Assembly: GCA_964397465.1 (NCBI GenBank)
Contig: CAYNIC010000011.1
Span: 3,503 to 67,502, forward strand
Direction: 5' to 3'
DNA: 64,000 bases
DNA from: an uncultured Rhodospirillales bacterium
Lineage (GTDB): Bacteria; Pseudomonadota; Alphaproteobacteria; JAWKYA01
Shown here: one piece after another, positions 29,887-59,342 of the stretch
How positions within the stretch are numbered: position 1 is the first letter of the stretch
How the letters are laid out: the number at the start of each line of letters is the position of its first letter
Notes under the pieces: model-generated
The model's input: the letters and a program-made list of their open reading frames with translations, nothing else
Told to the model about the DNA's origin: nothing
The model's database searches: none
Position numbers and translations under genes: made by a program

Positions 29887-31335
29887 TTAGCGGGCATCCA
29901 CGCCAATCGCTTGGGTAAGCGAGGTAAAACCATCCCGGGCCAGCAGCGCCGAAACCTCGGATTTCAGGCGCTGAACCAGCCCCGGCCCCTGATAAACCAG
30001 GGCGGTATAAAGCTGCACCAGACTGGCGCCGGCCCGGATTTTCGCATAGGTATCGGCCCCGCTGGCAATCCCGCCGACCCCGATCAACGGCAGCTTGCCC
30101 GCAGTGTCGCGATGAACGGTGCGTAAGAGTTCGGTCGATGGGGCGAACAAGGGTTTGCCGCTAAGACCGCCCTGTTGCGACGCGTGAGAACTGCGCAAAA
30201 ACGAAGGCCGGTCGACGGTGGTGTTACTGATGACCAAGCCATCGGCGCCGTTGCCATCGAGGGCGACACTGATGATGCCGTCCAAGGCGGCGCGGCTTAG
30301 ATCCGGCGCGATCTTGATCAGGATCGGCACGGTTTCGCGCAGTTTCACCTGACGTAACGCGGTCAAAATCGCGCGCAGCTGCGTCTCGCCCTGCAGGTCG
30401 CGGAGGCCCGGCGTGTTGGGCGACGACACATTGATCACGGCAAAATCAACCAAGGGGGCGAGCTGGGTAAACACGGTCACGTAATCGCCCACCGGATCGG
30501 CGGTGTTTTTATTGCAGCCGATATTGACCGCCACGGGACGGCGAATTTCTTTATACTGCCGCATCTCGGCAAGACGGCTTGAGGCCGCTGTGGCGCCGTG
30601 ATTGTTGAACCCAAGACGATTGATCAGGGCGTGATCTTCGTTCAAGCGAAACATCCGCGGCCGCGGATTGCCCGGTTGCGGTTTCGGCGTCAAGCCGCCG
30701 ACTTCGATGAAGCCGAAACCAAACCGCTCCATCGCCGGCACGACCCGCGCATCCTTATCAAATCCGGCGGCAAGACCGATCGGATTGGTGAAACTTTTTC
30801 CCCACACCGAGATCGCAAGATTGGCCGGATCATCGGGCGGATCGGTGCGCCAGGGAAACAATCCGGTCTCCAGCAGACGAAGCGTCAGCCGATGAGCGGT
30901 TTCAGGCGCAAGACAGCGCAGCCAGGTTGTCGCCGTACCATAGATGTCGAAGGATAATGCCGCGTCATCGTTCATCTTCAGCGGCGGAAAAACATGCACA
31001 CCATCGGGACCCAGCGGCAAAGGCTCAACCTTGATCACCGCGGCGGGTGACAGCGGACCATAAAGATGGGGGAACAGATCGCCGCCGCGGGACGATTCCC
31101 ATTTTAACGCCGAGCCTAAACTTGGCGCATTCACCGTCAGCAGCAGAAGATCTTTTTGTCCGGCGCGATGTTTCGCGGCGCTGACTTTAATTTGTACCGC
31201 GGTGGAGAAATGGATAAAGCCGTCGCGTATGTCGTCGGGCGACCCGCGATAAGGCGCGCCGCTTGCGACAGCCGCACGCCATTCCGCCTCATGGGCCATG
31301 TGATAGATGAGCTGGGGTGCGGAAGATGAAGTCAT
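29887..31335 (-). CDS. pyrD: DUF952 domain fused in frame to quinone-dependent dihydroorotate dehydrogenase
   Basis: N-terminal ~120 aa match DUF952 (DGFIHFSTA...KWESSRGGDLFPHLYGPL). The remainder is class 2 PyrD (LAPETAHRLTL..., GLAAGFDK, GFIEVGG, NISSPNTPGLR, IGVGGI). No stop codon between the two parts. Confidence 0.85.
   Translation of the reverse strand: MTSSSAPQLIYHMAHEAEWRAAVASGAPYRGSPDDIRDGFIHFSTAVQIKVSAAKHRAGQKDLLLLTVNAPSLGSALKWESSRGGDLFPHLYGPLSPAAVIKVEPLPLGPDGVHVFPPLKMNDDAALSFDIYGTATTWLRCLAPETAHRLTLRLLETGLFPWRTDPPDDPANLAISVWGKSFTNPIGLAAGFDKDARVVPAMERFGFGFIEVGGLTPKPQPGNPRPRMFRLNEDHALINRLGFNNHGATAASSRLAEMRQYKEIRRPVAVNIGCNKNTADPVGDYVTVFTQLAPLVDFAVINVSSPNTPGLRDLQGETQLRAILTALRQVKLRETVPILIKIAPDLSRAALDGIISVALDGNGADGLVISNTTVDRPSFLRSSHASQQGGLSGKPLFAPSTELLRTVHRDTAGKLPLIGVGGIASGADTYAKIRAGASLVQLYTALVYQGPGLVQRLKSEVSALLARDGFTSLTQAIGVDAR
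31267..31310. repeat. Direct repeat copy A (functional 5' end of the DUF952-pyrD gene)
   Basis: About 39 of 44 positions identical to 32317-32358 in a hand alignment with 2 single-nt gaps. Confidence 0.75.
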
Positions 31336-31440
31336 GGGTGTTTTCTATCTAGTCCTCAGGGCAAAGGGCAAGGGTTCAATAGGCAGCTTGGCTTTTCTCG
31401 GTATAGGCCGTATACTCGTATCACGGGTAATGGTGATGAT

Positions 31441-32250
31441 ATGAAGTTTTCATTTTTTACGACATCCGTTTTGGCAGCAACTCTATGGCTGTCTATGAGT
31501 GCAGCAGCACAGGCTCAAGCCCCGACGCCGCAGGAATACATTAAGCGTGGTTTTACATACAACGGCTTCACCCGCAATCCGCATGCCCGGGAACCGTGGA
31601 CGGGACTTTACGCCGATGAGTTGCCGCAACCGACACCGGGTGACGTTTGGCTGACCTTGGGGTGGAGCAAAAAGCAAACCTCCAGTACCTGCATTGGCGA
31701 AACCACGACGCCTTTATGCACCCTCGATACCTTTCTTGCCTGCCTTATCCGCGATGACGGCCGACTTTGCGCCAAGGCGGAGGGAACGAAACCAACCCGT
31801 CGCTGGTCAGGACCACCCCCTTATGCGCCTTATCCATCCCAGACTCCTTACCCGGCTTATGCGCCTTATCCCCGCACCGGACTGATGCGGTATAAAGTTG
31901 CCTCGGTTGCGCGGATTACGGCTGAAACCGCCGCCGAATTTCAAGAACAAGATTCAAGCCACCAAGAAAAATCTGGCGATATTCAGTTACGTATTGATTG
32001 GGAAATGTGTGGCCGCGCCGATCGCAATGGTCATCTTTCCGATTGTTGCCAGCCGCCCTACTCTAGTAGTTTTGTAGTTCGCCGCCAGACTTATGGTCAT
32101 TGGATCTTGGTGCGGCATGATCATCCTGACTTAAACGACCGGCTGCGATTTCACCCCGAAACCGAAGATATCCGCTGGTCAGAAGATTATTACCAAGATG
32201 CGCCTTATTGTACGGATATCAAGGCACCAATTCGGCGCCGTAAACCCTAG
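31441..32250 (+). CDS. Secreted Cys-rich hypothetical protein with YAPYP-type Pro/Tyr linker
   Basis: Signal peptide MKFSFFTTSVLAATLWLSMSAAAQA; 269 aa. No family recognised. Lies between the two repeat copies. Confidence 0.55.
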   Translation: MKFSFFTTSVLAATLWLSMSAAAQAQAPTPQEYIKRGFTYNGFTRNPHAREPWTGLYADELPQPTPGDVWLTLGWSKKQTSSTCIGETTTPLCTLDTFLACLIRDDGRLCAKAEGTKPTRRWSGPPPYAPYPSQTPYPAYAPYPRTGLMRYKVASVARITAETAAEFQEQDSSHQEKSGDIQLRIDWEMCGRADRNGHLSDCCQPPYSSSFVVRRQTYGHWILVRHDHPDLNDRLRFHPETEDIRWSEDYYQDAPYCTDIKAPIRRRKP

Positions 32251-32371
32251 CGTTTGGGTTGACGCGGTGGGGCCACAAAAAAACGGAATCTTTCGATATC
32301 GCCATCATCCGCCTTCAGACAGCCGCGCGTCATCCGCCTCATGGCCATGTGGTAGATGAATGGAGAAATCA
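32246..32371 (-). pseudogene. Frameshifted remnant of a DUF952 5' end (repeat copy B at ~32317-32358)
   Basis: The minus strand reads MISPFIYHMA, compared with MTSSSAPQLIYHMAHEAEW in the intact gene. A 1-nt deletion then shifts the frame, giving a 41-codon remnant. Confidence 0.55.
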
Positions 32372-32385
32372 TGAAAGTATGTTCT

Positions 32386-33687
32386 CTAAGGAGATCTCTT
32401 TTTCTGATCTTTGCTCTTAAACTTTAGTTTTGGCTGAGGATGGCGTGAGCCATACATCCATTTAGGGTCTATTATCAACTCAGGTTCTTTTTTGGGAGTC
32501 GCTGGTCTTGGAGGGAGAGAAAGCTGCATCGCTTTATCGCCTTGAGCAATATTTTTTAAATGATTTTTAAATAAGCTAACGTCACCAAAATAGTTTGGAT
32601 AAGCAATTTTCAGATTTGCAATCTTATCTATTTCTACCAAAACAACCTCAACCATTTTTTCATTTTCTCTCAATTCACTTTCAACCCTATTGTAAGACTC
32701 AGTAGCAGCAAGCGCTGTGTAGTAGGGGTCAAGATAGACGTAATTTGTAGCGTAATCATACTTAACAAGAAGGTGTGTTGCCTGAGTATTTTGAAGTTGA
32801 GCAGAGCTTGTTCCCTCGACTGCAAGGCTGACACCTTCCAGCAAATTAACAGCATTCAACACATGTGCTAGTTCCCTTATCTCTTCTCGGCGTTCATTAG
32901 CATTAGGTGTGTTAGGAACCGTCGGGCATTCTTCGTGTTCAGCAAACTCGGCTGACATTAATGTTAACAACCGAAGCCAGTTATGGTCGCCCTTACTATA
33001 TTTAAGTTCTTTTTTAATTATAAGACCTACAGATTCTACGGCTGTTGCCCAGGTATGTTGAAGTTTTGTTCGTATCTGAACTTCTATTTTTTTGCCATCG
33101 AAGGCCGTAGGCCGCTTTCCTTGGTAGCTAAAAATAATGTGGTGACTACGATAGCCATCATCTTTAGGTGAAACAATAAAATCTTTCTCACTGTGAAAAC
33201 TGTTAGAAAGATGATGAGTCAAAATATCGCTAATATTTTTTACGTCAGAAATACTTTTAACAATTGCTCTGCATCCGCCGATATCTTGAATCGTTTGCAG
33301 TTTTAAGCGAGTGAGCCTATTTAACTTGTCGCGAATTGACTGCATTCGTTTAAGTCTAGCCGCTACCAGGCCTTCTTGCTTATTGGCTCGTAGCAATGCT
33401 CTAATTTTACCTCGAATACTTCTCATAGGATAAGCATGAGCTTCCCGCCAGTTGTTAGCTATAAGGAAAGCATCGCGGACCTCGAAAGGTATATCGGTTC
33501 CTTCTGGGTGCAGATTTTTTACAGCAATTATTTTACCCGCCTTCTCTATATCGTTAAGCGAGAATTTAAGGTGTGGATAATCGTTCTCGTCAGCCAAGGA
33601 AGGCTCCAAATTAAGGATATCATCCTCCCAGGAAAAACACTTTTCCCGGGCATCTGAGGCTACTATAAGAAATGGTAGATTAGCCAT
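32386..33687 (-). CDS. RelA/SpoT-domain (small alarmone synthetase / toxSAS-like) protein with N- and C-terminal extensions
   Basis: ORF 32386..33750 trimmed to the ATG at 33687 after AAGGAA. Synthetase-fold motifs GGCRAIV, DGYRSHHIIF and EVQIRTKLQHTWA. No HD hydrolase, TGS or ACT region. Markedly AT-rich. Confidence 0.75.
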   Translation of the reverse strand: MANLPFLIVASDAREKCFSWEDDILNLEPSLADENDYPHLKFSLNDIEKAGKIIAVKNLHPEGTDIPFEVRDAFLIANNWREAHAYPMRSIRGKIRALLRANKQEGLVAARLKRMQSIRDKLNRLTRLKLQTIQDIGGCRAIVKSISDVKNISDILTHHLSNSFHSEKDFIVSPKDDGYRSHHIIFSYQGKRPTAFDGKKIEVQIRTKLQHTWATAVESVGLIIKKELKYSKGDHNWLRLLTLMSAEFAEHEECPTVPNTPNANERREEIRELAHVLNAVNLLEGVSLAVEGTSSAQLQNTQATHLLVKYDYATNYVYLDPYYTALAATESYNRVESELRENEKMVEVVLVEIDKIANLKIAYPNYFGDVSLFKNHLKNIAQGDKAMQLSLPPRPATPKKEPELIIDPKWMYGSRHPQPKLKFKSKDQKKRSP

Positions 33688-33724
33688 GAAATTCCTTTCT
33701 AAGAGATCAAGAATAATCCCTACC

Positions 33725-34345
33725 CTACCTACGCCCTGCATAAGGATCATGTAGAGCAGGTACAGTAACTTGTGACGTAGCGCCGCCGCCGTTGCGTTGG
33801 AAAAGTTTCTCGGCTAACCGCGCGATGCCACCGCCGTCGGGCAAGCTCAACGGGCCCGACTTATCGTGGCTGCGCTTATAGACATAGATGCCCAGAACGC
33901 CCAAAGCGACACTCCAACTGGTCGAGAGGTTGTCGAGGGCCGCAATCACCTCCACGGCAAACGCTGGTTTGATCGCGATCAGATAGGCAACCGCCCCCAT
34001 CTGTCCCAACCAGGTCACGGCGATGATATAACCAAAGGTGGGTCTCATGCGCCGCACGTAAGGATCGTCCGACGCAACCTCGCGGCGGATGGTGCGGTTG
34101 ACTTCGGTCAGTGTAACGGCATCCCGGTCGGCTTCGATCTGCGCCATGGTTTCCAGATGGCGGTTGGCCTCGTTTATTGCTTCGGGCGGAACCTCGCCCT
34201 TGCCGATGGCGTCGGTGACACGGCCTAAGGCGTCGGACGCTGCCTTGGCCAAAGGATGAGAGAGTTTACCAAGGGCAAATCCGACGAGTTTGGCAAGAAC
34301 CGGCAAGCCGATGCCGGCAAGAAGACTGGCAAACATTTTTGTCAC
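33725..34345 (-). CDS. Putative 3-TM holin (GTA/phage holin_3TM-like)
   Basis: DPYVRRMRPTFGYIIAVTW plus following hydrophobic helices resemble the 3TM holin family. GTGA overlap with the hydrolase gene (alternative ATG at 34336). Confidence 0.55.
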   Translation of the reverse strand: MTKMFASLLAGIGLPVLAKLVGFALGKLSHPLAKAASDALGRVTDAIGKGEVPPEAINEANRHLETMAQIEADRDAVTLTEVNRTIRREVASDDPYVRRMRPTFGYIIAVTWLGQMGAVAYLIAIKPAFAVEVIAALDNLSTSWSVALGVLGIYVYKRSHDKSGPLSLPDGGGIARLAEKLFQRNGGGATSQVTVPALHDPYAGRR

Positions 34346-34800
34346 TCCACATTGTTATAGAAAACATGGCGGCCGATGCGGGCCGAGGGGGTGCGGCCGT
34401 GGGACCAATAGGGGCTGATATGGCTTGCGTGGTAATGGGTGGCGCCGTTGGTCGGATCGGCCATGGTGCCGCCAAGCGCCTCGGCGGCGATGAGAAGCGC
34501 CAAACGAAACGCCGCATCGCTTTCATCCACGGTCAGTACCTTGATCCGGTTGGGATCGCCCACGTTCCAGCAGGAAAATTGATAGGCGGCAAGGCAGATC
34601 TCCCGCACCGACCGTGTCCGCTCGATCCCTTCGCGAGCCCGGCGGTTGATGATGACGGCGGCGATCGCGCGCATGCCGGCCTCGCCTTCGCTGCGCGCTT
34701 CGCCCCACAAAGTGCGGGCCAGGATGTCCCGTTCCCGCGCCGGTTCGGCCAAGGCCTGATCGATCCGCACCGCGGCGGGACTCAAAGTGCGACTCATCAT
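34342..34800 (-). CDS. SleB-type cell wall hydrolase (endolysin)
   Basis: RTLWGEARSEGEAGMRAIAAVIINRR and ATHYHA motifs of the Hydrolase_2/SleB family. Confidence 0.8.
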   Translation of the reverse strand: MMSRTLSPAAVRIDQALAEPARERDILARTLWGEARSEGEAGMRAIAAVIINRRAREGIERTRSVREICLAAYQFSCWNVGDPNRIKVLTVDESDAAFRLALLIAAEALGGTMADPTNGATHYHASHISPYWSHGRTPSARIGRHVFYNNVE

Positions 34801-35108
34801 ACGGCTCCTTGTTTGGGAAACAGGGGAACATCCAGCTTGGCTTCGATGCGCAACAGGTGCGACGTTAACCGCCGCTCTACATCCTTCAGGTAGGCGATCG
34901 AGGCGTAGGATTTCGCCACTTCCAGTTTATAGGCGGCCAAGGTCTCGCGCAGTTGCGCATCCCCGGTGTGACATTGATGACGGAGGTGATCTAGTTTCTC
35001 TTCGCCATCGCGGCGGATGCGCCAGATGAACCAGAACAGACCGGCCAGGGTCGGCAGCTCGACCGCGGTGATCCACCACAACAGGGTCTCGGGCAAAAAG
35101 TTGCTCAT
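34797..35108 (-). CDS. Membrane-anchored coiled-coil protein (possible spanin-like lysis accessory)
   Basis: ATG at 35108 overlaps the upstream stop. One N-terminal TM helix followed by a helical region. Function inferred from position only. Confidence 0.4.
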   Translation of the reverse strand: MSNFLPETLLWWITAVELPTLAGLFWFIWRIRRDGEEKLDHLRHQCHTGDAQLRETLAAYKLEVAKSYASIAYLKDVERRLTSHLLRIEAKLDVPLFPKQGAV

Positions 35109-35434
35109 AGGGATGATCCGTTTGCAGAAGGTAAGGTTGGCGCCGGTGCGTGGGTGTCGCTTTGCCAGTTTTTTCCTTCGGTGATGATGCAAGATCGGCT
35201 GGAGGTGAGGCGCGCCACGGCAACCCAACTTGCCGTCATCGGCGCGATGTAAACATCGATGGTCGTGCCCTCCGCCGTGGTGCCGCGGCCTAGACGGATA
35301 AATCCCTTGGCGGGGGCGAGGGCTTGATCAAGCTCCGCCGTCGATCCGCACCGCGGTGCTGCAAGAGTAAGCGACGGCAAGGCAAGGATCATCGCGCCAA
35401 GCGTCAGCCCGGCGATACTGTGACAGTAGCGCAT
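35105..35434 (-). CDS. Small secreted hypothetical protein
   Basis: ATG at 35434 after GAGGAG. Signal peptide MRYCHSIAGLTLGAMILALPSLTLAA. Confidence 0.45.
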   Translation of the reverse strand: MRYCHSIAGLTLGAMILALPSLTLAAPRCGSTAELDQALAPAKGFIRLGRGTTAEGTTIDVYIAPMTASWVAVARLTSSRSCIITEGKNWQSDTHAPAPTLPSANGSSL

Positions 35435-35466
35435 AAAAATTCTCCTCAAGATGGGGTTAGAAAAAC

Positions 35467-36960
35467 CTACGGTTCGAAATCGGTTGCGGCGGCGGTGTTG
35501 GTGGCGCCCGGTCGCCAATCGCGTTTGGTCCGCGGCGCAAAGGCGGCGGCAATTCGCACCGGCTCTGCTGAAATGGCGCCGGCCACCGCATCCAGGGCGT
35601 CATCGGGACGTTTGCGACTGGTCGCCGCGGGCCGCCAGTCGCGCATCTGTTGAATAAACGGTGTCTGCCACAGGCTGCGATGGGCGTATAAGGTTCCCGC
35701 CGCCAAGGGCACATCAAGCGCATCCAAAATGCGTTGGGTTTTGGGTTTGCTGCTGTGGGCTTCGACCACCACGGTTGGAATCTTCGCCTCACTCAAGGCG
35801 TGACGTAAAAGTCCGGGCAAGAACCGGCCGATGCCGTTGGTCTCGATGGTCACTGTGGGCAGATGAAGTCCGCGCAAGAATTCGGCCGCTTGGCGGCAGA
35901 GCTGCGTTGCCTCGTCGACTTGCGGCAAGGCGGTCATGTCGTGGTTCAGATAGGTCAGGCGATGGAGATAGAAATTTCCTATCGCATCGGAAAACACCGC
36001 GGCAATCACGCTGCCGTCGCCCTTTTCCGCGGCGCCAAAGGCCGGATCCCACCAACAGCTCGCCGAGACCAGTCGCGTTTGACCCAACATCAGCACCGGC
36101 ATCCGGTTGGCCTCGCTGTAAACCAACTCGCCGTCATAGGGACGCAAGCGATCGGGGTTGAGACGCGCCGCCGTGACGTTGCTGGGCCGCAGCAACATCT
36201 GCGCCGCGAACTTCGCCTCGCCGCTGCGCCGCCGCATCTTGGCAATCTCGGTTTTGCCATAGCGTTCCGGCCAGATGCTGCGGCCCCGACGATCGAGCAA
36301 CGGCATCTCCATCCGTTTGAAGTTGCCCAGAAACGGTATGTCTTCACCCAATTCGCGCCGCGCTTCGGTGGCATAGATAGAGTAATAACTGTGGGGCGTG
36401 CCGATATAGATCTGGGTTCCGCCCGGCACCAGGATATAGGGAATTTCACTCAACCGGTCGCGCAGGTCCTGACGCTTGGGCGGGGTATCGCAGGTATTGG
36501 GAACCTCCACATCATCGCACAGGATCACATCGGCCCGGCTGCCGGTGACATTGGCCGAGATGCCGCGGCCCAGCATTGACGGATCGCGCAGCTCGCCCGG
36601 TCGTTTGACCGTAAACTGATCCATCGCCCAGGACGAAGTGCGGCGCGGTTTTAATCCCTTGGTAAAGGGATGGCGCTCGATCAGCCGTTTCACATTGCGC
36701 ACCATCTTGCAGGCAAGATCGTGCTCCGCCGCCAGAACCAAGATCCGCAGCATCGGATTCTTGGTAAACAACCAAGCACAGAATAATCCGCAGATGGTCG
36801 ACTTGCCGCTTGACCGAAACGCCAGCAGTACCAGTTCATGATCATGGGCTGCCCACCGGGCCGCCAGCCACCGCGCCATGCGGAGTTGCACCCGCGGTGT
36901 GGTTTGGCCCTGATGCTCGTTCCACATCCAGACGAATTCGGGAAAGCTGGGCGCGGTCAT
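35467..36960 (-). CDS. Phage terminase large subunit
   Basis: Walker A-like FRSSGKST, Walker B-type ADVILCDDVE, and a C-terminal nuclease-like region; 497 aa. Confidence 0.8.
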   Translation of the reverse strand: MTAPSFPEFVWMWNEHQGQTTPRVQLRMARWLAARWAAHDHELVLLAFRSSGKSTICGLFCAWLFTKNPMLRILVLAAEHDLACKMVRNVKRLIERHPFTKGLKPRRTSSWAMDQFTVKRPGELRDPSMLGRGISANVTGSRADVILCDDVEVPNTCDTPPKRQDLRDRLSEIPYILVPGGTQIYIGTPHSYYSIYATEARRELGEDIPFLGNFKRMEMPLLDRRGRSIWPERYGKTEIAKMRRRSGEAKFAAQMLLRPSNVTAARLNPDRLRPYDGELVYSEANRMPVLMLGQTRLVSASCWWDPAFGAAEKGDGSVIAAVFSDAIGNFYLHRLTYLNHDMTALPQVDEATQLCRQAAEFLRGLHLPTVTIETNGIGRFLPGLLRHALSEAKIPTVVVEAHSSKPKTQRILDALDVPLAAGTLYAHRSLWQTPFIQQMRDWRPAATSRKRPDDALDAVAGAISAEPVRIAAAFAPRTKRDWRPGATNTAAATDFEP

Positions 36961-37319
36961 GACAGATCATCATCCTCGGCATCATCGTCCGGCACGGTAT
37001 CGTCGGTATCCGCCACCGCATCCCGCGCCCGGGTCAACAGCGACGCCAAGGCATCGTCGCTTTCCGCTTCTTGATGATCCACCGCCCACCGCGCCAGACG
37101 TAACAGCCCATCCAAATGTCCTAGGGCGGATTTGCACGCAGTATGATAGGCGGAAAAACCCTTGGCGGTGTTGTCGCAGGGTGCGGCGACAAACTGGGTA
37201 TAGCTGTCCAAGGCGGTGGCCAATAAAACGGGAAGATCCTGGGCGATTTTTTGCCGGGTGGACTCGAGGCCCTTTTGGGTGCGGTTTTTGCTGGAAAGTT
37301 TTGATACCGAAACTGTCAC
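36957..37319 (-). CDS. Hypothetical phage protein with acidic C-terminus (small-terminase position)
   Basis: ATGA overlap with the large terminase gene. Function suggested by position only. Confidence 0.4.
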   Translation of the reverse strand: MTVSVSKLSSKNRTQKGLESTRQKIAQDLPVLLATALDSYTQFVAAPCDNTAKGFSAYHTACKSALGHLDGLLRLARWAVDHQEAESDDALASLLTRARDAVADTDDTVPDDDAEDDDLS

Positions 37320-37354
37320 GTCATGTCCTTTCGAGGGAAAACAAAGGCAAGAAA

Positions 37355-37585
37355 TTATCGGGGCGGCAGTGTGCCGGTGATTCCAGTGGCGATTTTTAGA
37401 AACTGTTCCAGCCGCGCCTCGACCTCAGCCAATCGGGTTTCCAGGGGCAGGGAAGATGCCGGTGAAGAAGGTGATGAATCCGGCGGCGCAATGAAAACCG
37501 CCGAGGCGGTTTCGTCGTTTTTCAGGATATAGTTCTCGTCCTCCCATCGAACGCTAAGACCGCGGTTACTGTAGATATAGGGCAT
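37355..37585 (-). CDS. Hypothetical 76-aa phage protein
   Basis: ORF in the operon frame between the fibre and terminase genes. Confidence 0.35.
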   Translation of the reverse strand: MPYIYSNRGLSVRWEDENYILKNDETASAVFIAPPDSSPSSPASSLPLETRLAEVEARLEQFLKIATGITGTLPPR

Positions 37586-37594
37586 GGAACCTCC

Positions 37595-40087
37595 TTAAAA
37601 TTCGTAGCCGTTGATATCGAGCCGAAACTGAGCCGTAGTTGTGGACGACCGCCAATACACCTGCTGGGTTGTGTTCAAGATCAGACGAAACTGTCCGGCG
37701 ATCCGCCATCCATCGAAGATGGTACCGCTGGCATTCCCGGCCGCGGTGTAACAGCCGCCGGTGCCGGTGGCGTCGGCGGCAATGGCGATGGTGTCGTTGG
37801 CCGAGGCGGCGGATTGGCCGATGGTTCCGGAGACCACACCCGCGGCCGGCGGCACCGCATTGGCGATGGATTGCACCGTCCAACTGGTGATGCCGGCGAT
37901 GCCGGTAAAGATGGTTTGTGGTGCCTGAATGACGCTGCGGTCGAACTGATAAAACTTCACCAGATTTGATGCGCCGTCATTGCGCGCCGACCCGACCAAG
38001 GCCTTGTAAGTATATCCGCCGGGAAGCATCGGTGTCGTTCCCGACAAGGATATCAATCCCGCCACGGTGGAGGTCGCGGCATTGTAAATGACCCACAACC
38101 GGTACCAGGTGGCGGCGGCTTCAACGCCGCTGTCCAACCCGTTGACGCCGCTGGCGGCGATGTCGACGGTAACCGCAATGTTGCTCAGCATCATCGCGTC
38201 ACCGGCGGCGTCCTTCACCATCAGTTCATCCGCGGCGATGTCGATCTTATTGGCCGGCGACGCGGCATTGACTCCGGCTTTCAGCCGTCGCGCTTGCCCG
38301 GCAAGGGTGAGGGAATGGGTAAAACTTAAAACGCCATTACCATTGGTGCGGAGAACTTGACCGGCCAGGCCGTCGCTGCCGGGAAAAACAAGACCCTTCA
38401 GTTTGATCTTGCCGCTGCCGTTGGGTGAGAGGTCGATGTCGCCGTTCCCGGTACTGACGATTTTCTTGCCATTGACGATCAAATCCCCGCCCAGTTTTGG
38501 CGCCGGATCATCTTCGATCTTCATCAATATCCCGGGGATGCCTTGCGCGCCGGTGTCGCCTTTCATCGCCAGGACATCCCAATAGATCCCGTTGGGCGGC
38601 GTGTGATTGATATGGGCGATTTTGCAGCGATAACTGCTGCCGGCAAGGGTTGCCACATCGCCGATGACATAGGACGTTACCGCCGACCATGCGCCTTTCC
38701 AGGCCAAGGCGCCGTCATTGCCGGCAAGGCCGTCCACGGCGACCAAGGCCCATTGCGGCGTGGTTGCCGTAAGACCGATGCGGCTTGGCGTGATGCCTTG
38801 ATGATCGACGGCGGCGATATAGGTTGCGCCGCTGGCATCATGGCGGACGACATCGCCGCGTTTGTAGGATGTCGTCATTTCCCACGCGGCCATCCAAGCG
38901 AATCCAAGCTCGGTCAAGGGCAAGGGTACAACCGTAACCGACTTGCCGGTCCACACCATCCATCGTGCGGCATAGGAGGGCGACGTCAGATCAACGGGGG
39001 TGCCGCCGCCGCTGGCGTCGGTTGTTCCCGCCTGGGCGATGTCGCCGGCGGCGAAACCGCTGCCGCCCGCCAGTTGGGGATTGGCCCCGGCTTTGTTGTA
39101 AACGTATCCGTGGCTGTGGGTTGGAAGTTCCGCCAAGGTTAGACTGTGTTTCTCTTCGCCGAAACTTGCGCCCAGTTGGCGAAGAGTAAGACCGGCACCT
39201 TGTCCTGCACCGACGATGGCACGGCCGCGCAAGTCGGGAAGTTTGACTGTGTCGTGCAAAAGCCACGTCTCGCTTCCCTGGTTAGGCGGCAAGGTGCGGA
39301 GGATGGAAAACAGGTTTTCATAGGCGCCATGGGCATGATCCGCTCCGCTTGAGGCGTCGCCCAAGGTTTTGCCATCGAGCTCCAGCCATCCGTCGGGCGC
39401 CATGCCGCCAAGGAGGCCGCCGAGAAACGGATGAATGGTGCCGACCGGTATCGCCGCCGCGACCTGACTGTTAAGGGCGTTCAAGCTGGCGGTGACACCG
39501 TTTAATGCCGCGGTACTGGCGGCGCCCAAGGTGGATCGTCCCGCTGCGGGATTTCCTGCCGCCAATAATGTCTCGCCAAATCCCGACACCGCCAGGTTTC
39601 CCGGCGGGGTGGCGATAATGGCCGTGGGCCGCCCCTCCGCATCAAAGCCCAGCGCTCGCCCGGCGCGAAGCGGCGCCAAGGGCAAGGTCATATCGACGTC
39701 GCTGTCGAACGGCGCCTTGGCAAGGGCATCGCCGGTCAAAGCCTGAACCTGCTGCACGCCCAAGGTCAAACGATCCAGTTCTTCATTCACCACTGCGGCG
39801 CGAAAGGATTCGCCATCGATGAAATCGGTGGTGCGGCTGATCGGCATGGCGCGGCTGATGGTCACCCGGCATCCGGCGGGCGGCGGAATAAAAAATACCA
39901 CATCACCGCCGCTGCTATTTCCGATGCCGGTAACCGTATAGGTGTTGATCGGCGCCCATTGGTCGTTCAACGCGACCTTTAAATCATCGCCGTTCAGAAT
40001 GGGGAAGTCGTAAGCAAAGGCCGTGACGGCGCCGGTGCCCCAATGCTGAAGGCGTGGCCGGACATCGCCGATGAGAAGATCGGACAT
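37595..40087 (-). CDS. Tail fibre protein with phage tail-collar domain
   Basis: 830 aa. Collar motif ...APDGWLELDGKTL...VKLPDLRGRAIVGAG...LTLAELPTHSHG. Confidence 0.7.
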   Translation of the reverse strand: MSDLLIGDVRPRLQHWGTGAVTAFAYDFPILNGDDLKVALNDQWAPINTYTVTGIGNSSGGDVVFFIPPPAGCRVTISRAMPISRTTDFIDGESFRAAVVNEELDRLTLGVQQVQALTGDALAKAPFDSDVDMTLPLAPLRAGRALGFDAEGRPTAIIATPPGNLAVSGFGETLLAAGNPAAGRSTLGAASTAALNGVTASLNALNSQVAAAIPVGTIHPFLGGLLGGMAPDGWLELDGKTLGDASSGADHAHGAYENLFSILRTLPPNQGSETWLLHDTVKLPDLRGRAIVGAGQGAGLTLRQLGASFGEEKHSLTLAELPTHSHGYVYNKAGANPQLAGGSGFAAGDIAQAGTTDASGGGTPVDLTSPSYAARWMVWTGKSVTVVPLPLTELGFAWMAAWEMTTSYKRGDVVRHDASGATYIAAVDHQGITPSRIGLTATTPQWALVAVDGLAGNDGALAWKGAWSAVTSYVIGDVATLAGSSYRCKIAHINHTPPNGIYWDVLAMKGDTGAQGIPGILMKIEDDPAPKLGGDLIVNGKKIVSTGNGDIDLSPNGSGKIKLKGLVFPGSDGLAGQVLRTNGNGVLSFTHSLTLAGQARRLKAGVNAASPANKIDIAADELMVKDAAGDAMMLSNIAVTVDIAASGVNGLDSGVEAAATWYRLWVIYNAATSTVAGLISLSGTTPMLPGGYTYKALVGSARNDGASNLVKFYQFDRSVIQAPQTIFTGIAGITSWTVQSIANAVPPAAGVVSGTIGQSAASANDTIAIAADATGTGGCYTAAGNASGTIFDGWRIAGQFRLILNTTQQVYWRSSTTTAQFRLDINGYEF

Positions 40088-40111
40088 GAGAGTGTCTCCT
40101 TATAGAGGCGC

Positions 40112-42501: not shown

Positions 42502-42502
42502 C

Positions 42503-45132: not shown

Positions 45133-45136
45133 GGCA

Positions 45137-47008: not shown

Positions 47009-47027
47009 TCTTTTCAGTTCCTGTCAA
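46999..47027 (-). promoter_or_regulatory. Near-consensus sigma70-type promoter for the portal-to-holin genes
   Basis: The minus strand reads TTGACA (47027-47022), 17 nt, TATATA (47004-46999). Confidence 0.6.
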
Positions 47028-47109
47028 CGGTATTTTTTCTTAAAAAATGAAAAAGAAGCTGGCCGCCTGTGGGCAAGGTTTCCTTCCGGCTGAATCCCCA
47101 GCGTCTATT

Positions 47110-49813: not shown

Positions 49814-49829
49814 CGTATGAGAGGGAGTT

Positions 49830-50627
49830 ATGCCTTACGTACAGCGAGATAAAAAAGGAATTGTAACAGGGTTATTTGAACATAAATTACCAGAGGCTAC
49901 TATGGAATTTCTGGAAAAAGACGATCCGGAAATTAAAGACTTTTATGATCGATTTCCACTATCGCCTCAGATGATAGAGGCGCTTCGCCCTAAATCTACA
50001 AAAGAGTTACTCGAACAGCATCAAAAAATTGAAAAAGAATATAATCAACTTATAGAAGACCATAAAGCACTTCAAAATCTCATTATATCTTTATTAGGTG
50101 TATGGGCGGAAATGGAGACTAGCTTTGCTGGCTTACTAAATGTTCTTTTAACAGGAAGTAGAGAAAAATTGGCGTTTGCACTTTACTTTTCTATTCGAAA
50201 TTTTCAAACGCAAATGACGGTAATTCAAACACTTGGTGAAGTGCTTTTTCCTTCCGAAGAAAATTCAAAAAAAGTGTATAAAGAATGGGAGTCAGTTTTT
50301 AATAAAATTAAAAAGGAAGTACCTGAAATTCGAAACAGAATCGCTCACGGGCATATAGTCCAGTTCTTGCACGAGAAGAAACATATACGTGTTTTGCCGC
50401 CATTTTTTGATTTCATTAAAATAGAAAAAAGCAACGCAAAAGCTGAATTACCTGGAGTTGGACAAAACGAAATATACAAAAGTATAAAGGTAATAGGCCT
50501 AACTTCTCAGTTTGCCAATCGCTTGTCGCTTATTTTTAAGCGTTCTTTTGAAGGCGAGGCATTAGCACTTAAAGAAATTGATTTGGAGCTCAAAAGTTAT
50601 AAGGAAAATTTCAAAAATTTAAGATAA
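49830..50627 (+). CDS. Hypothetical protein with HEPN-like Rx4H motif
   Basis: 265 aa, strongly AT-rich and all-helical. The motif EIRNRIAHG sits at the end of a helical-bundle-like region. Start lies 17 nt after the ilvE-like stop, with RBS GAGGGAG. Confidence 0.5.
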   Translation: MPYVQRDKKGIVTGLFEHKLPEATMEFLEKDDPEIKDFYDRFPLSPQMIEALRPKSTKELLEQHQKIEKEYNQLIEDHKALQNLIISLLGVWAEMETSFAGLLNVLLTGSREKLAFALYFSIRNFQTQMTVIQTLGEVLFPSEENSKKVYKEWESVFNKIKKEVPEIRNRIAHGHIVQFLHEKKHIRVLPPFFDFIKIEKSNAKAELPGVGQNEIYKSIKVIGLTSQFANRLSLIFKRSFEGEALALKEIDLELKSYKENFKNLR

Positions 50628-50765
50628 CAGATGATATAAACATCAGCACCGCCATACGTCGTGTCAATGTCCTGAGATCGACTATCCGCCGGTGCCCTTC
50701 AGCAATAAACCCTTTGCCAGCCTCAGCCCGCTTAAGTAGCATTGCGCGGAAGGGATTTTCGTCTC

Positions 50766-51779
50766 ATGACGCTAAATTATCTCGAACTGATTATCGGCAG
50801 TCTGTGCTTAATCATCATCGGCTTCTGCGCCGGTGTTGTTATCCATGCCGGCGAGATCATTCCCTATCAGCCGCTGATCGTCGGTTTGATCGCGCTGGGC
50901 GGCGCGGTGATCGCCTATGTCGGAACGCTGAGGGCATCCCACGCCCATCTGCAGGTCGCCGAGAAGAACATCAAGCATCAGCAAGAGCAGAAGGCGCTGG
51001 ACTCTATCAACGAGAAACAGGAAATCGCGTCCTTTGCGCAAAAGCTGCTGCTGGAAATATTCAATTATCTGGTGGCGACAAGCCTTCTTTCCCGGGACCA
51101 GGCCATCGATGAAAAATGGCTCAACCTCTTGACCCTGAAAGACATGATAGAGCGATATGTCACCAGGATGGAGGACGCCTCGGATAAATTCATGAAACTG
51201 GACATTAACAACTCCAGCCGAATTCATCTGATCATTCGCGGCTTGAAAAACATCCTGCCCGAGGCGGAGACGATCCAAAATATAAATCAGCTGATGAAAA
51301 CCGGCGACAATGGCGCGATCTGCGCCCAGTATATCAACCGCACCTATGAATATATCGGGACATTCTTGAACGAGAACGTTACGGTACATGACATCCTTAA
51401 CGACTTGGATGTCATCTCCAAGGGCAATGTGGATCAATCAAGGGCGTATTCGATCTTGACGACGGATCTGAGAAAAATCATCAACGAGAATCTGAGGCTT
51501 ATTCAATCCGCCGTCACCGCGGGCCGCTATCTCGAGATCGATTATCCGCCGGGGCGCCGGGTGGTGGCGCCGCATATTTTGGGGCGCACCAGCAGTGGCG
51601 AGCTGGTGCTCAGCGTCTATCAAGTCAACGGCGCCAGTGATGCTGGCGAGACGGTGGGGTGGAAGACTTTCCATCTCGATCGCATTTTGGGCGTAAGGGT
51701 GTTGGATAAACGCTTTTCACCGCAGGGCGATTACAATCCCCACGATCCGAAAATACCCGAAGTTATCGTCAAGGTATAA
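50766..51779 (+). CDS. Two-TM membrane protein with C-terminal WYL-like domain
   Basis: ATG at 50766. TM helices LELIIGSLCLIIIGFCAGVVI and PLIVGLIALGGAVIAYVGTL. C-terminus YLEIDYPPGRRVVAPHILGR...LVLSVYQ...WKTFHLDRILGVRVLDKRF fits the WYL pattern. Confidence 0.55.
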   Translation: MTLNYLELIIGSLCLIIIGFCAGVVIHAGEIIPYQPLIVGLIALGGAVIAYVGTLRASHAHLQVAEKNIKHQQEQKALDSINEKQEIASFAQKLLLEIFNYLVATSLLSRDQAIDEKWLNLLTLKDMIERYVTRMEDASDKFMKLDINNSSRIHLIIRGLKNILPEAETIQNINQLMKTGDNGAICAQYINRTYEYIGTFLNENVTVHDILNDLDVISKGNVDQSRAYSILTTDLRKIINENLRLIQSAVTAGRYLEIDYPPGRRVVAPHILGRTSSGELVLSVYQVNGASDAGETVGWKTFHLDRILGVRVLDKRFSPQGDYNPHDPKIPEVIVKV

Positions 51780-51803
51780 GCGCCGCAGCGCGCCTGTTGC
51801 AGG

Positions 51804-51875
51804 TGCGGATCACTGATCAACAGTTTTCATCGCAGCTAAAGGACCATCTACGCGATGTGATTGTCACTCCCATCA
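51804..51875. repeat. Direct repeat R1 (~72 bp)
   Basis: Hand alignment with 53176-53246 gives about 56 of 72 identical with one gap. The best block is TGCGGAT.ACTG.TCAACAGTTTT. Confidence 0.75.
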
Positions 51876-51903: not shown

Positions 51904-52623
51904 TTAATTTGTCGTTTGAAAGCCACGAATCGCCCAGAGTATTGACCATCCAAATATAAAGATAATCGTTGGGGGAATGATAAACATACCCAGGATAAAT
52001 AATAAACTTTTGTCAGCTATAGATCGATATTCTTTGGCATGGTTTTTTGCGGCATCAATTTTGTCTAACCGGCTTACTTTAGATTTGTAGATTTCTGCAG
52101 GGTTACGGCCGCAAGGAAGATCTATGATCTGTCTTGATTTTTCTGCCAGATTCTTATTCAGAATATTTCTAGCATCTTGAATAGATAATGACCTAAAATC
52201 AACAATAGTAACCCAAGCTTCTCGTTTAAAAGCTTCCACTATAGCTTCCAGCTGTTCATCAGATAATTTTTCAAAGTCAAACTTAGTTTGGGATGACGGA
52301 TTTTGTTTCTCCGTTTGTCGTTCTGGTGGGGGAAAATTTGATTCTTGTATTTGATTAAGATCTATCCAGCCGTTCTCCATAAAATAGAAGATAGGCTCAG
52401 TGCGGCATTTAGTTCTATAATACTTTCCTACTTCCGGTTCAGGCAGAGAGTCTGTCTCTGATTGTAGAAAAGATATTTCGCGATCTGCTTCTGCAGAACG
52501 CCTTATATTATTAGTATATTCCGATTTCAATTCGGTTAATACCAGCCAAGCTACCAGCGAAACCCATATTGCACTAATTATCAGCCATAAACGAAAAAGC
52601 CCTCTTCCAAATCTAGACATCAT
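51904..52623 (-). CDS. Hypothetical membrane protein with N- and C-terminal TM helices
   Basis: 239 aa, AT-rich. Third gene of a translationally coupled trio. Confidence 0.5.
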   Translation of the reverse strand: MMSRFGRGLFRLWLIISAIWVSLVAWLVLTELKSEYTNNIRRSAEADREISFLQSETDSLPEPEVGKYYRTKCRTEPIFYFMENGWIDLNQIQESNFPPPERQTEKQNPSSQTKFDFEKLSDEQLEAIVEAFKREAWVTIVDFRSLSIQDARNILNKNLAEKSRQIIDLPCGRNPAEIYKSKVSRLDKIDAAKNHAKEYRSIADKSLLFILGMFIIPPTIIFIFGWSILWAIRGFQTTN

Positions 52624-52813
52624 ACTTTAGGCACTCTTCTGCAGAAGCAACTTCAGATTTTAATTTTGAATAATCTATATTTTCACCCCAAGGTTTATCG
52701 TCTCGAGCGTTCTTTAAGGCGTCGCTGCAAAGATCTTTATTGCTCAAATTCGTAAATGGATATGAATAGAATTTTGGTGGGTAGTCTGGAATAGTAACTT
52801 TCACACATTTCAT
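52613..52813 (-). CDS. Hypothetical 66-aa protein
   Basis: Overlaps both neighbours (ATGA with the upstream gene, 11 nt with the downstream gene). Confidence 0.4.
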   Translation of the reverse strand: MKCVKVTIPDYPPKFYSYPFTNLSNKDLCSDALKNARDDKPWGENIDYSKLKSEVASAEECLKYDV

Positions 52814-53046
52814 TGTTTGATCTTTCCATTATTTTTTATAATTTGGTTGGGATCGAATCCCTCCGCCACAAGAAGTGAGCTAAGTTGTTCACCAAAACTT
52901 TTACTGTCTTCATATGCGAAGAGAGGCTTTTGAGTCTTATCAGATACAGATATATAAACGCGCCCTTGACCCGCATGCTCAAAATCAAAGTTGTAGCCAA
53001 GGTCATGGAGCGCAATGAGCATTCTGGCGTTGTTTGTATTGCTCAT
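52810..53046 (-). CDS. Hypothetical 78-aa protein
   Basis: First gene of the trio. Preceded by a very AT-rich ~125-bp leader/promoter region. Confidence 0.45.
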   Translation of the reverse strand: MSNTNNARMLIALHDLGYNFDFEHAGQGRVYISVSDKTQKPLFAYEDSKSFGEQLSSLLVAEGFDPNQIIKNNGKIKQ

Positions 53047-53175
53047 TAGGTTATGCTTCCCTTTTATTTCTATTTAAAAGGGTATCATTAAATATATATA
53101 ATTTTAAATAGTTTTAAAAACACCTGACTTTTCAGTATCTTCTGCCTAGAAATCATTTTTAGCGCATTGTGTGGT

Positions 53176-53246
53176 TGCGGATAACTGGTCAACAGTTTTT
53201 ACCGAAATTGAAAGCCATCCGCGCGAAGTGACGGTCGCTCCCATCA
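53176..53246. repeat. Direct repeat R2 (~71 bp)
   Basis: See R1. Confidence 0.75.
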
Positions 53247-53284
53247 CTGCGCGGATTTAACCGGCGTCTCAGGTCAACCCGGCG

Positions 53285-57642: not shown

Positions 57643-57688
57643 AATAAACAAACGGGCACCCTTAAAGGATGCCCGTTTGTTGTTTAGC
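57643..57688. terminator. Bidirectional Rho-independent terminator
   Basis: 12-bp perfect stem AACAAACGGGCA / TGCCCGTTTGTT with U-rich tracts on both strands. Lies just below the orphan copy of the nucleotidase 3' end. Confidence 0.65.
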
Positions 57689-57702: not shown

Positions 57703-57737
57703 CTAGTCGGCTCTTGTGATCCGCCCTTCGACCTTGG
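57703..57737. repeat. Perfect 35-bp direct repeat, orphan copy
   Basis: CTAGTCGGCTCTTGTGATCCGCCCTTCGACCTTGG is identical to 59308-59342. Confidence 0.9.
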
Positions 57738-57739
57738 TC

Positions 57740-58366
57740 TTACTCTCCGCAGTCACGATAGGTGGATTCGCGGCACTTTTCGGCCATGGCCTTGGCTTCA
57801 CTGACTTGCTGAGGCGTTAAGTCTGACTCCGTAGCGGTGAGAATTTTCTGTGCCAGATTGGCAATATCAGAATTGGTTGCCGTTTCGCTGGCTATCGAGG
57901 TCCACATATAGGTGCGAACATCATCGCGAGGAACGCCCTTTGCGGCAGAATACAACAAGCCAAGTTGTATTTGTCCCAAGGCATATCCTTGCACCGCCGC
58001 CAGCTTAAACCATTTTCGTGCTTCTTGATAATTCGGCACGACGCCGTCACCTTGGCGATAAATAACGCCGATCGTAACCTGCACGGTAGGATGATGGGCT
58101 TGTTTGTTGGCGAGACTGAACCACTTGGCGGCTGCAGCATGATCCCGCGTCACACCTTCGCCTCGATAATACATCGTGCCCAAGGTAATTGAAGCTTGAT
58201 CCATGCCACCTTCAGCCAAGGGCTTGAGAATGGAAAGTGCCGTGGCATAATCTTTGCGGTCGTAAGCGGCTTTGCCGTCTTGCAAAGGGCCAGTCGCTGC
58301 AGGGGCGGCAAAAATGAATCCCCCCAGAATTATCACGGTCAACCGATAGGCCATTCTCCTTTTCAT
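57740..58366 (-). CDS. Secreted Sel1-repeat protein
   Basis: Signal peptide, 5 Sel1-type repeats, and a C-terminal KCRESTYRDCGE. Confidence 0.75.
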   Translation of the reverse strand: MKRRMAYRLTVIILGGFIFAAPAATGPLQDGKAAYDRKDYATALSILKPLAEGGMDQASITLGTMYYRGEGVTRDHAAAAKWFSLANKQAHHPTVQVTIGVIYRQGDGVVPNYQEARKWFKLAAVQGYALGQIQLGLLYSAAKGVPRDDVRTYMWTSIASETATNSDIANLAQKILTATESDLTPQQVSEAKAMAEKCRESTYRDCGE

Positions 58367-58370
58367 GAGC

Positions 58371-59096
58371 TCATTCCCCGCAGTCTTGATAGTCGGGATG
58401 GCGGCACTTCAGCAGCATGATGTTAGCTTCAGCAAGTTGCGACGGCGAAAGCCGCTGCTTTAAAGCTGGGTAATTTTTCGCTGCATTAGAATCTTTATCG
58501 GCGCTAAGACTGAACCACATATAGGCACGGGCGAGATTGGATTTAACACCATAGCCATCACGATAGATCACGCCGAGATTATTTTGTGCCTGGGCGTCGC
58601 TCTGCTTTGCGGACAACAAAAACCATTTCCGCGCCTCTACATAGTTTTTGGGCGTGCCTTGGCCCAGCCAATGCATCTGGGCGACCTGGAATTGAGCGTC
58701 GGGATTACCCCATAAGGCGGCCAGGCGAAACCACTTCAAAGCTTCCCGATAATCTTGGGGAACACCGGTCCCGTTTTTGTATAGCACCCCCAGATTGCTC
58801 TGCGCCATTACGTTTCCTGTTTCGGCGGCCAGGGTGTACCATCGGATGGCTTCGTTATAATCTTGTGGCACACCTTCGCCATTGCTGTAGGCACGGCCAA
58901 GATTATACTGCGCCATGGCATCACTTGTTTGCGCCAAGGTTCGCCAAATGGAGACAGCGGTTTGGAAATCACCCCGTTGAGAAGCAGCATAGGCCTCTTC
59001 CATCGGTGTCGCTGCTAAGCCGGGACGTGCGAGAAAAACAAGCGCGATTAAATATACAAAAGTAATCAACATCCGCCGCTGAAGACGTTTTGTCAT
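58371..59096 (-). CDS. Secreted Sel1-repeat protein (paralogue of the downstream gene)
   Basis: ORF trimmed to the ATG at 59096 (MTKRLQRRMLITFVYLIALVFLARPGLA). Sel1 repeats and a C-terminal KCRHPDYQDCGE. Confidence 0.75.
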   Translation of the reverse strand: MTKRLQRRMLITFVYLIALVFLARPGLAATPMEEAYAASQRGDFQTAVSIWRTLAQTSDAMAQYNLGRAYSNGEGVPQDYNEAIRWYTLAAETGNVMAQSNLGVLYKNGTGVPQDYREALKWFRLAALWGNPDAQFQVAQMHWLGQGTPKNYVEARKWFLLSAKQSDAQAQNNLGVIYRDGYGVKSNLARAYMWFSLSADKDSNAAKNYPALKQRLSPSQLAEANIMLLKCRHPDYQDCGE

Positions 59097-59254
59097 GTCG
59101 ATGTCGGGTGTAGCGGAGCGAAAAGCTGTTCTCATCCTGACCCCTTGACAATGCACTTGCCATTAACAAACGTATATCGAGTAAAATATTATAGTATGCT
59201 ACTATAAATTATAAGATCAAGAAAAGCGTTTTTAAGAGGTGATAACTTCGCAGT

Positions 59255-59285
59255 AACAAAAAGGCACCGTGGTTGCGGTGCCCTT
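59255..59285 (-). terminator. Rho-independent terminator just below the nucleotidase stop codon
   Basis: The minus strand reads GGCACCG-caacca-CGGTGCC followed by TTTTTGTT. Confidence 0.55.
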
Positions 59286-59307
59286 TAGTCATGCCATCAG
59301 TATAAGC

Positions 59308-59342
59308 CTAGTCGGCTCTTGTGATCCGCCCTTCGACCTTGG
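59308..59342. repeat. Perfect 35-bp direct repeat, functional copy (last 10 codons plus stop of the nucleotidase gene)
   Basis: Encodes ...KVEGRITRAD*. Confidence 0.9.

Follow-up and report, generated by a model that had tools for sequence, protein, structure and literature searches.

Displaced gene ends at integrase-free hotspots in a Rhodospirillales-type alphaproteobacterium: likely scars of gene gain, exchange and loss

Results

A 64-kb window (the whole stretch analysed, 64,000 nucleotides of contig CAYNIC010000011.1) from an uncultured Rhodospirillales-type alphaproteobacterium carries small gene inserts beside short direct repeats at three sites, here called i, ii and iii. These repeats are probably splicing scars, that is, leftover or duplicated gene ends at integrase-free hotspots, where DNA would have been joined by one-sided homologous plus illegitimate recombination and would then have undergone ordinary exchange and loss. 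Four such hotspots lie between core genes: holin and pyrD (site i), an aminotransferase gene and a gene for a membrane protein with a WYL domain (hereafter the WYL gene; a fourth scar with an insert called alpha), the WYL gene and a convergent 156-aa gene (site ii), and a 5'-nucleotidase gene and a 105-aa gene followed by a helicase gene (site iii). The three sites are not one element family. At each scar, a gene end appears to be contiguous with the cargo on one side, and on the other side the DNA seems to pass abruptly into a second copy of that end or into a resident gene that was truncated.

The window has a GC content of ~60%, and its housekeeping genes include those for an ABC transporter, a PTS system, pyruvate:ferredoxin oxidoreductase, GroES/EL and ATP synthase. 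Because the GTDB representatives are too distant (the nearest, Rhodospirillales metagenome-assembled genomes, are only ~60% identical in the helicase), metagenome and Logan contigs were used as comparison genomes (L numbers). The same species is present in JGI metagenome 3300013121 (623-kb contig Ga0172278_1319; 99.9-99.99% identical), and several Logan and ENA assemblies contain it too. Two slightly diverged strains, L064 (SRR1027651) and L065 (ERZ27282990), are 99% identical to the window in the core flank, and six sister lineages lie at helicase nucleotide distances of 0.18-0.23 (L076/L144/L145-148, L077, L143, L110, L149-154 and L137-141). For sites ii and iii, the strains recovered from within the species are either at least 99.9% identical or represented by short contigs.

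The three repeat pairs had been reported in a first-pass annotation made from the sequence alone, and all of them were recovered as the top three non-palindromic matches when the 64-kb window was compared with itself by blastn (next best E ~0.3). The site iii pair (57703-57740 vs 59308-59345) spans 38 nt at 97% identity (E 1.7e-10), with a core of 35/35 identical positions (57703-57737 vs 59308-59342). The site ii pair (51804-51875 vs 53176-53246) spans 72 nt at 77.8% (E 8.7e-8) and was extended to ~86 nt by a repeat search (51790-51875 vs 53162-53246), while the site i pair (31267-31310 vs 32318-32359) spans 44 nt at 88.6% with two 1-nt gaps (E 3.7e-6). All are direct repeats with a spacing of 1.05-1.6 kb. 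Each occurs exactly twice in the window and can be traced by homology to one particular gene end in relatives. The gene-end nature suggested earlier was found to hold for the pyrD 5' end at site i and the nucleotidase 3' end at site iii, and it extends to site ii, where the repeats are WYL-gene 3' ends. The repeat families differ in length (35, about 50 and about 86 nt) and in the gene end used (5' at site i vs 3' at sites ii and iii), and no motif common to the three was found, as the pairwise local alignment scores did not exceed those of shuffled controls. The hexamer TGTGAT was considered as a shared core and dismissed; it occurs in one copy of each pair and is not kept in the partner copies.

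Our survey shows no indications of mobile-element machinery. No integrase, transposase or recombinase domain was found, either by Pfam in the larger predicted open reading frames (ORFs) of the window or in the precomputed Pfam annotation of identical contigs for the remainder. Neither a tRNA, a tmRNA nor an Rfam family that could serve as a target is present in the window, and the insert ends have no terminal inverted repeats. With neither inverted ends nor a transposase, and with duplications of 35-86 nt, the inserts do not qualify as transposons or insertion sequences. Nor do they resemble integron cassettes, as no integrase and no palindrome beyond ordinary terminators was seen at the cassette ends (a dedicated attC model was not run). 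Direct repeats that overlap a gene end, as in attachment sites, are found at sites ii and iii; site i formally has them as well, but there the repeats do not bound the variable unit. The absence of a recombinase from the window thus agrees with the first-pass annotation, as does the secreted or membrane nature of the cargo: when the translations were inspected by eye, the N-termini of the cargo proteins looked like signal peptides or membrane-spanning segments. The promoter-like leaders proposed for each insert fared less well, since hexamers of this kind do lie 5' of each cargo operon yet are not above shuffled expectation. The low-GC cargo has a GC content of 34-40% (vs ~60% for the window), and Pfam, NCBIfam and PADLOC gave no usable family assignment for the cargo of alpha, that of site ii (called beta) or the 269-aa protein of site i.

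Among the relatives compared, the sites show presence/absence polymorphism, with empty sites at ii and iii and an alternative cassette within the species at i. Recombinase-less gene gains at fixed places, as anticipated in the first-pass annotation, are therefore retained here as the general description of the locus.

At site i, the resident copy (31262..31335, minus strand; repeated part 31267-31310) is the functional 5' end of a DUF952-dihydroorotate dehydrogenase gene (29887-31335), as indicated by Pfam (DUF952 and DHO_dh), the self-blast and orthologous 5' ends. The second copy, B (32313..32372, minus), is a decayed 5' fragment of a DUF952 gene that begins 13 nt after the stop codon of a RelA/SpoT-domain gene (32386..33750, minus; identified by Pfam; GC 40%; PADLOC candidate defence family PDC-S33, E 2.9e-104). 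Aligned together with orthologous 5' ends, copy B differs from the resident gene by a 12-nt deletion, two 1-nt deletions and 11% divergence, and hence it cannot be a fresh duplication from a recent arrival. Adjoining copy B is a 3' remnant of ~20 codons (32247..32312, minus; ending in RFRFFVAPPRQPKR and the stop codon) of a 174-aa gene that is intact in L064 and L065 (L064 5725-6249, translated), and remnant and DUF952 fragment together form an in-frame chimeric ORF of 41 aa.

L064 and L065 align to the window at 98.9-99.1% over 26417-32290; homology then breaks, and it resumes at 33781 at 95%. Both strains retain the gene for a 269-aa secreted protein that lies between the site i repeats (31441..32250, plus strand; ~99% conserved in strains without copy B), and both lack copy B and the RelA/SpoT gene. 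In this place both carry a 277-aa gene (with a PG_binding_1 domain in L064) and the 174-aa gene. It follows that the variable unit consists of the RelA/SpoT gene and the DUF952 fragment (~32308-33780). The insert of site i had earlier been taken to be the DNA between its repeats, and one layout had been assumed for all three sites; neither idea survives this comparison, since the site i copy travelled with the neighbouring RelA/SpoT gene and does not bound the 269-aa gene. Copy B is missing from L064, L065 and the sister species, and was seen only together with the RelA/SpoT gene. In the sister species, the interval between holin and pyrD holds genes of 94 aa and 134 aa and a 313-aa phospholipase C gene, so that three different contents are known.

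The edges of the exchanged segment are both homologous to L064 and diverged from it. They comprise the last ~19 codons of the holin gene (33725..33781, minus), which mark the left boundary, and ~40 nt of the end of the 174-aa gene, and this is the pattern expected of allelic exchange by flanking homology. Moreover, the phage-like cluster that includes the holin gene is 95% identical to L064 vs 99% for the core flank. The site i segment was therefore acquired by exchange via flanking homology, and its source was a more diverged lineage in which the RelA/SpoT-DUF952 chimera was already present. Evidence of this kind for homologous recombination in the flanks comes from site i only. The DUF952 fragment may represent a piece of the earlier neighbourhood of the RelA/SpoT gene, co-transferred when this gene was first spliced into the 174-aa gene, and the hotspot between holin and pyrD is located where a phage-derived cluster has its lysis genes. 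No donor of the RelA/SpoT-DUF952 segment was found, the nearest non-self RelA/SpoT homologues being ~50% identical, and in no relative examined does a RelA/SpoT gene adjoin pyrD. An origin of the DUF952 fragment as a phage attP site was also considered and rejected, as 12 related viral contigs gave no DUF952-like match in DNA or protein.

Some further features of the site i genes were observed. The RelA/SpoT gene is called at only 319 aa on the JGI contig (L062 5151-6110), and the window and this contig differ by one indel somewhere in a 20.9-kb alignment, which suggests that the gene may be frameshifted in the JGI strain. The fusion of DUF952 and dihydroorotate dehydrogenase (482 aa, 29887-31335) is shared by a handful of database proteins (P0121-P0127), and all other close PyrD homologues are ~360 aa long and have no DUF952. 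Within the gene of the 269-aa secreted protein, two identical 16-nt direct repeats (CTTATGCGCCTTATCC; 31820-31871) lie 36 nt apart and encode a motif of the P-Y-A-P-Y-P type.

At site iii, all features lie on the minus strand and the order is legible. The R copy (59308..59342) is the functional 3' end of the 5'-nucleotidase gene (59308-60945), namely its last 11 codons and stop. It is followed by a terminator hairpin (59256-59289), a promoter-like site (59235-59208) belonging to the cassette itself, and two genes for secreted Sel1-repeat proteins identified by Pfam (57740..59156; Sel1-1 at 58371-59135/59156 and Sel1-2 at 57740-58366). The L copy (57703..57737), a non-coding duplicate of the last 35 nt of the nucleotidase gene including the stop, stands at the native position 2 nt after the Sel1-2 stop codon, and beyond it lies the native terminator hairpin of the nucleotidase gene (57647..57681), a palindrome in the self-blast that directly follows the stop codon in relatives with an empty site.

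The interval between the nucleotidase and helicase genes is either filled or empty among relatives. Precise empty sites, in which the terminator found after the L copy in the window comes directly after the nucleotidase stop, occur in L076, L077, L143, L144 and L145. Orthologous Sel1 pairs with the same junction between Sel1-2 and the repeat are found in L110 and L149-L154, where the L copies have decayed (88% identity in L110; a 6-nt deletion and a 1-nt insertion in L149). The lineages that share this junction differ by ~20% of nucleotides in the helicase, and the identities between the window and L149/L151 are 0.90 for the nucleotidase, 0.80 for the intergenic DNA, 0.88 for Sel1-1, 0.78 for Sel1-2 and 0.80 for the helicase. 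As the same junction is present in distant lineages and the cassette has diverged in step with its flanks, the Sel1 insertion is old despite its perfect repeat. A neighbour-joining tree of the helicase, built from one gene fragment of 870 nt, interleaves filled and empty lineages (the split of {window, L077} from the rest was recovered in 200/200 bootstraps), and hence at least two gain or loss events are required wherever the root is placed. This is most simply read as an old insertion that was precisely lost more than once. Such loss would be expected from recombination between the 35-nt repeats, and the 35/35 identity would reflect gene conversion rather than youth. The graded identity of the repeats had originally been read as a measure of age, and this does not hold, since the perfect repeat of site iii flanks an old insertion and the 89% repeat of site i belongs to a segment that varies among strains with 99% identity in the flank.

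Three ideas about the source of the Sel1 cassette and its repeats were tried and dropped. The stop codon (TAG in the window and L110, TAA at empty sites) seemed to mark the R copy as cassette-borne, until the filled L149 was found to have TAA. The idea that filled lineages had recently passed on the nucleotidase 3' end to one another was not borne out, as the window and L110 are not unusually similar in that stretch. Finally, the third Sel1 gene of the window (15954-16799, minus; 281 aa), a candidate for an intragenomic origin of the pair, shares only ~30% protein identity.

Site ii and the fourth scar both involve the WYL gene, which is intact in the window (50742..51779, plus strand; 345 aa, membrane protein with a C-terminal WYL domain; PADLOC WYL E 4.3e-7) and is the native gene of the interval. 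Alpha (49814..50697, plus) consists of a 265-aa gene (49830-50627; GC 34%) followed by a mid-gene WYL fragment of ~49 nt (50649-50697; ..QCPEIDYPP..), and the 265-aa gene is missing from L077, L119, L143, L144 and L145. On the other side of the WYL gene, copy A of site ii (51788..51875, plus; ..RLLQVRITDQQFSSQLKDHLRDVIVTPIS) is a displaced WYL-gene 3' end that starts ~10 nt past the intact stop. The beta cargo (51904..53046, minus; GC ~37%) comprises three ORFs, of 239 aa (a membrane protein; 51904-52623), 66 aa (52613-52813) and 78 aa (52810-53046), with an AT-rich leader at 53047-53160; these ORFs are missing from L077, L143, L144 and L145. Copy B (53160..53260, plus) is a frameshifted WYL-gene 3' end at the native position, and its native ..ARI* stop adjoins the convergent 156-aa gene. 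Both repeats are thus decayed WYL-gene 3' ends and not anonymous flank. They share derived bases found in no orthologue and hence descend from one sequence.

The content of the interval between the aminotransferase and 156-aa genes differs among the window, L077, L119/L144, L143 and L145. In most relatives the WYL gene has decayed or been deleted. It is intact, at 247 aa, in L143. In L077 it is broken up into 124, 65 and 114 aa, in L119 and L144 it has many stops, and in L145 only its last ~60 codons are left; an orthologous remnant is found in L105. In all relatives, the WYL 3' end (..DYNP.DPKIAR..ARI*, the last ~25 codons) abuts the convergent gene, and the DNA upstream differs completely. 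One possibility is that the surviving 3' end serves as a shared terminator region. Several rounds of rebuilding have shaped the interval.

The phage-derived cluster next to site i is a T7-like structural and lysis module (33725-47900, minus strand). It encodes a large terminase subunit (497 aa), portal, scaffold, capsid, tail tubular proteins A and B, a gp14-like protein, an 830-aa fibre, an endolysin and a GTA_holin_3TM holin. Genes for replication, for integration and for gp15/gp16-like proteins were not found in it, and an S24 repressor gene adjoins. The module occupies the same locus, between pyrD and the aminotransferase gene, in sister species that are ~20% diverged (L137, L145, L077) and also in the L064 strain, and related terminases with 45-56% identity are found on IMG/VR contigs, several of which measure 17-18 kb. 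From its gene content, the module looks like a domesticated element resembling a gene-transfer agent, and it is probably a more interesting object of this window than the repeats.

Discussion

The proposed course of events starts with an incoming segment from a related genome, which would pair by homology on one side and be joined illegitimately on the other, inside the end of a resident gene. Alternatively, the single-crossover integration of a circularised fragment carrying a gene end would give the same product. In both cases the segment would bring or duplicate a gene end, and the resident end would stay behind as a remnant. At site iii this would yield the order nucleotidase end, terminator, promoter, two Sel1 genes and displaced nucleotidase end, and at site ii the order WYL end A, three low-GC genes and WYL end B. 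At site i, the RelA/SpoT gene would have come attached to the first ~60 nt of a DUF952 gene from its former location and truncated the resident 174-aa gene. Later on, whole segments may have been swapped between lineages via flanking homology (within the species at site i), the repeats would permit precise loss (the empty sites at iii), and occasional gene conversion could keep the copies alike (35/35 at iii). For the later exchange and loss RecA-type recombination would suffice, and neither route of creation would need a dedicated recombinase.

This model matches the one published for integrase-free hotspots (PMC5635113). The intervals studied here are flanked by core genes, differ in accessory content and have no mobility genes, as required of such hotspots for horizontal gene transfer (Oliveira et al. 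2017). They are alike in that fixed core-gene intervals have different contents in every relative, in the homologous but diverged edges on both sides of site i, and in low-GC, strain-specific cargo that includes a defence candidate. They are unlike the described hotspots in being very small (one to three genes) and in having legible displaced gene ends that seem to record the first joints. Of the candidate mechanisms named in the first-pass annotation, homology-facilitated illegitimate recombination fits the anatomy best. It likewise involves no recombinase, one homologous anchor and one illegitimate joint, and it predicts an intact gene end contiguous with cargo followed by a displaced resident end; this layout, with the abrupt joint opposite, is what we see, and no donor sequence was found.

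Two other systems show similarities to single sites. Prophages and satellites such as P2 and P4 have variable defence-gene hotspots at fixed positions, and site i resembles these in its alternative cargo between the lysis end of a phage cluster and the host flank, a RelA/SpoT defence candidate vs two unrelated genes. However, the cluster here is without genes for replication or integration and keeps to a single locus in different species, and the defence function is a predicted one. Polymorphic toxin genes such as rhs and cdiA are followed by stacked displaced 3' ends known as 'orphan' modules, and the series of 3' ends of one gene at site ii (functional end, A and B) similarly suggests successive replacements. 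In contrast to those modules, the WYL gene is not a toxin gene, a conserved upstream crossover motif is lacking, and the remnants are ~90 nt long and have no immunity genes.

Several points weigh against the splicing-scar reading. No donor genome was found in which the joints could be compared for microhomology. Illegitimate joints of this type are usually described with loss of recipient DNA, and most experimental cases delete it, whereas here it is duplicated. At site ii, copies A and B begin in register, at positions of the WYL gene that agree to within a few nt, which random illegitimate joining does not predict. The perfect 35-nt repeat around the old insertion at site iii requires gene conversion as an extra assumption, whereas an element still capable of excision and reintegration would account for the identity without it. 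In addition, the mechanism presumes a putative uptake of DNA by the organism.

Even so, splicing scars at integrase-free hotspots remain the reading we favour, and the locus would then be a compact natural record of how chromosomal genes enter and leave without mobile-element machinery. The original joints are marked by displaced gene ends, exchange by flanking homology is visible in the alternative cassettes, and clean loss in the empty sites. It also carries a warning that the identity of flanking repeats is not a reliable clock, as the perfect repeat belongs to the oldest event and a diverged repeat to a segment polymorphic within the species. As integrase-free hotspots have already been described, the locus opens no new question; it clearly illustrates a process that is already known and does not represent a new mobile element.

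Among the alternatives, delivery by particles of the T7-like head, tail and lysis cluster (33.7-47.9 kb), in the manner of a gene-transfer agent, has a small chance of being correct. It concerns the vehicle only and is compatible with splicing scars, the host doing the joining. The gene content of the cluster would suit this role (large terminase, portal, scaffold, capsid, tail tubular proteins, fibre, endolysin and GTA_holin_3TM holin, with replication and integration genes not found), its presence at the same locus in sister species is expected of a domesticated element, and the four scars all lie within ~16 kb of it, with none in the first 31 kb of the window. Nevertheless, both the production of particles and the packaging of host DNA are putative, the proximity of the scars could simply reflect a prophage end and neighbouring hotspots, and cargo of low GC (34-40% vs ~60%) cannot stem from close relatives alone.

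We consider it unlikely that the inserts are small non-autonomous integrative elements, moved in trans by a recombinase encoded elsewhere in the genome, with the repeats as attL and attR overlapping gene ends. Insertion by an integrase classically leaves direct repeats of a gene end, and this idea would account for the precise empty site iii in several lineages interleaved with filled ones, the identical junction position in three lineages, the perfect 35-nt repeat despite the age of the insertion, and the register of the two site ii junctions. Integrase islands and their integrase-less derivatives are alike in having direct repeats of a gene terminus, a gene that is kept intact and precise empty sites (iii). 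They differ from what is seen here, where neither an integrase nor a tRNA target nor a shared core was found, the cargo measures only 1.3-1.6 kb and the site i repeat does not bound the variable unit. No recombinase gene was found within the 64 kb, and the repeat families are unrelated beyond chance and differ in length and in gene end (5' vs 3'). The DNA between the site i repeats is not the mobile unit, and the supposed element between the WYL stop and copy A is only ~10 nt. Moreover, the Sel1 cassette has diverged in step with its flanks and shows no sign of recent movement, and the L copies are decaying in L110 and L149. The common trans-acting recombinase that the first-pass annotation had listed as a candidate is thus disfavoured by the lack of a shared motif, the unequal lengths and the lack of inverted repeats.

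A bolder version, which we regard as quite unlikely, would invoke an unrecognised system of insertion and excision, either recombinase-independent or acting in trans, that targets gene termini, creates or requires direct repeats of 35-86 nt and is perhaps coupled to delivery by the gene-transfer-agent-like cluster. If such a system existed, the perfect Sel1 repeat, the repeated precise absence and the in-register WYL junctions would indicate ongoing site-specific mobility instead of gene conversion and chance.

A target-site duplication by transposition-like insertion or break repair, in which staggered cuts 35-86 nt apart were filled in and no gene end came from a donor, is very improbable. 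The duplication of resident sequence would explain why A and B share derived bases unseen in orthologues and why L and R are identical at site iii; however, 35-86 nt is far longer than known target-site duplications, neither inverted ends nor a transposase are present, and copy B of site i was not duplicated in place. Finally, chance matches or a dispersed repeat family, which would have undermined the first-pass annotation and for which only the shortness of each repeat speaks, are refuted by the E-values (2e-10 to 4e-6 vs a background of ~0.3), the occurrence of each repeat in two copies and the homology to gene ends.

Additional observations

Contigs of independent Logan assemblies share certain end points. 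The Logan contigs of SRR8797211 and SRR8797212 break ~140-170 nt into the low-GC alpha gene (window ~49971-50002), that of SRR8797211 also breaks at 53314, just past repeat B of site ii, and contigs of two separate samples both begin at 56254, inside the helicase gene. These shared breaks could be due to strain heterogeneity or to a loss of coverage in low-GC DNA. Outside the four hotspots, a stretch of ~240 nt (26833-27073, within a 230-aa ORF at 26507-27199) is replaced by unrelated sequence in L067 (1527-1767; JGI 3300006092), and may be another small variable patch.

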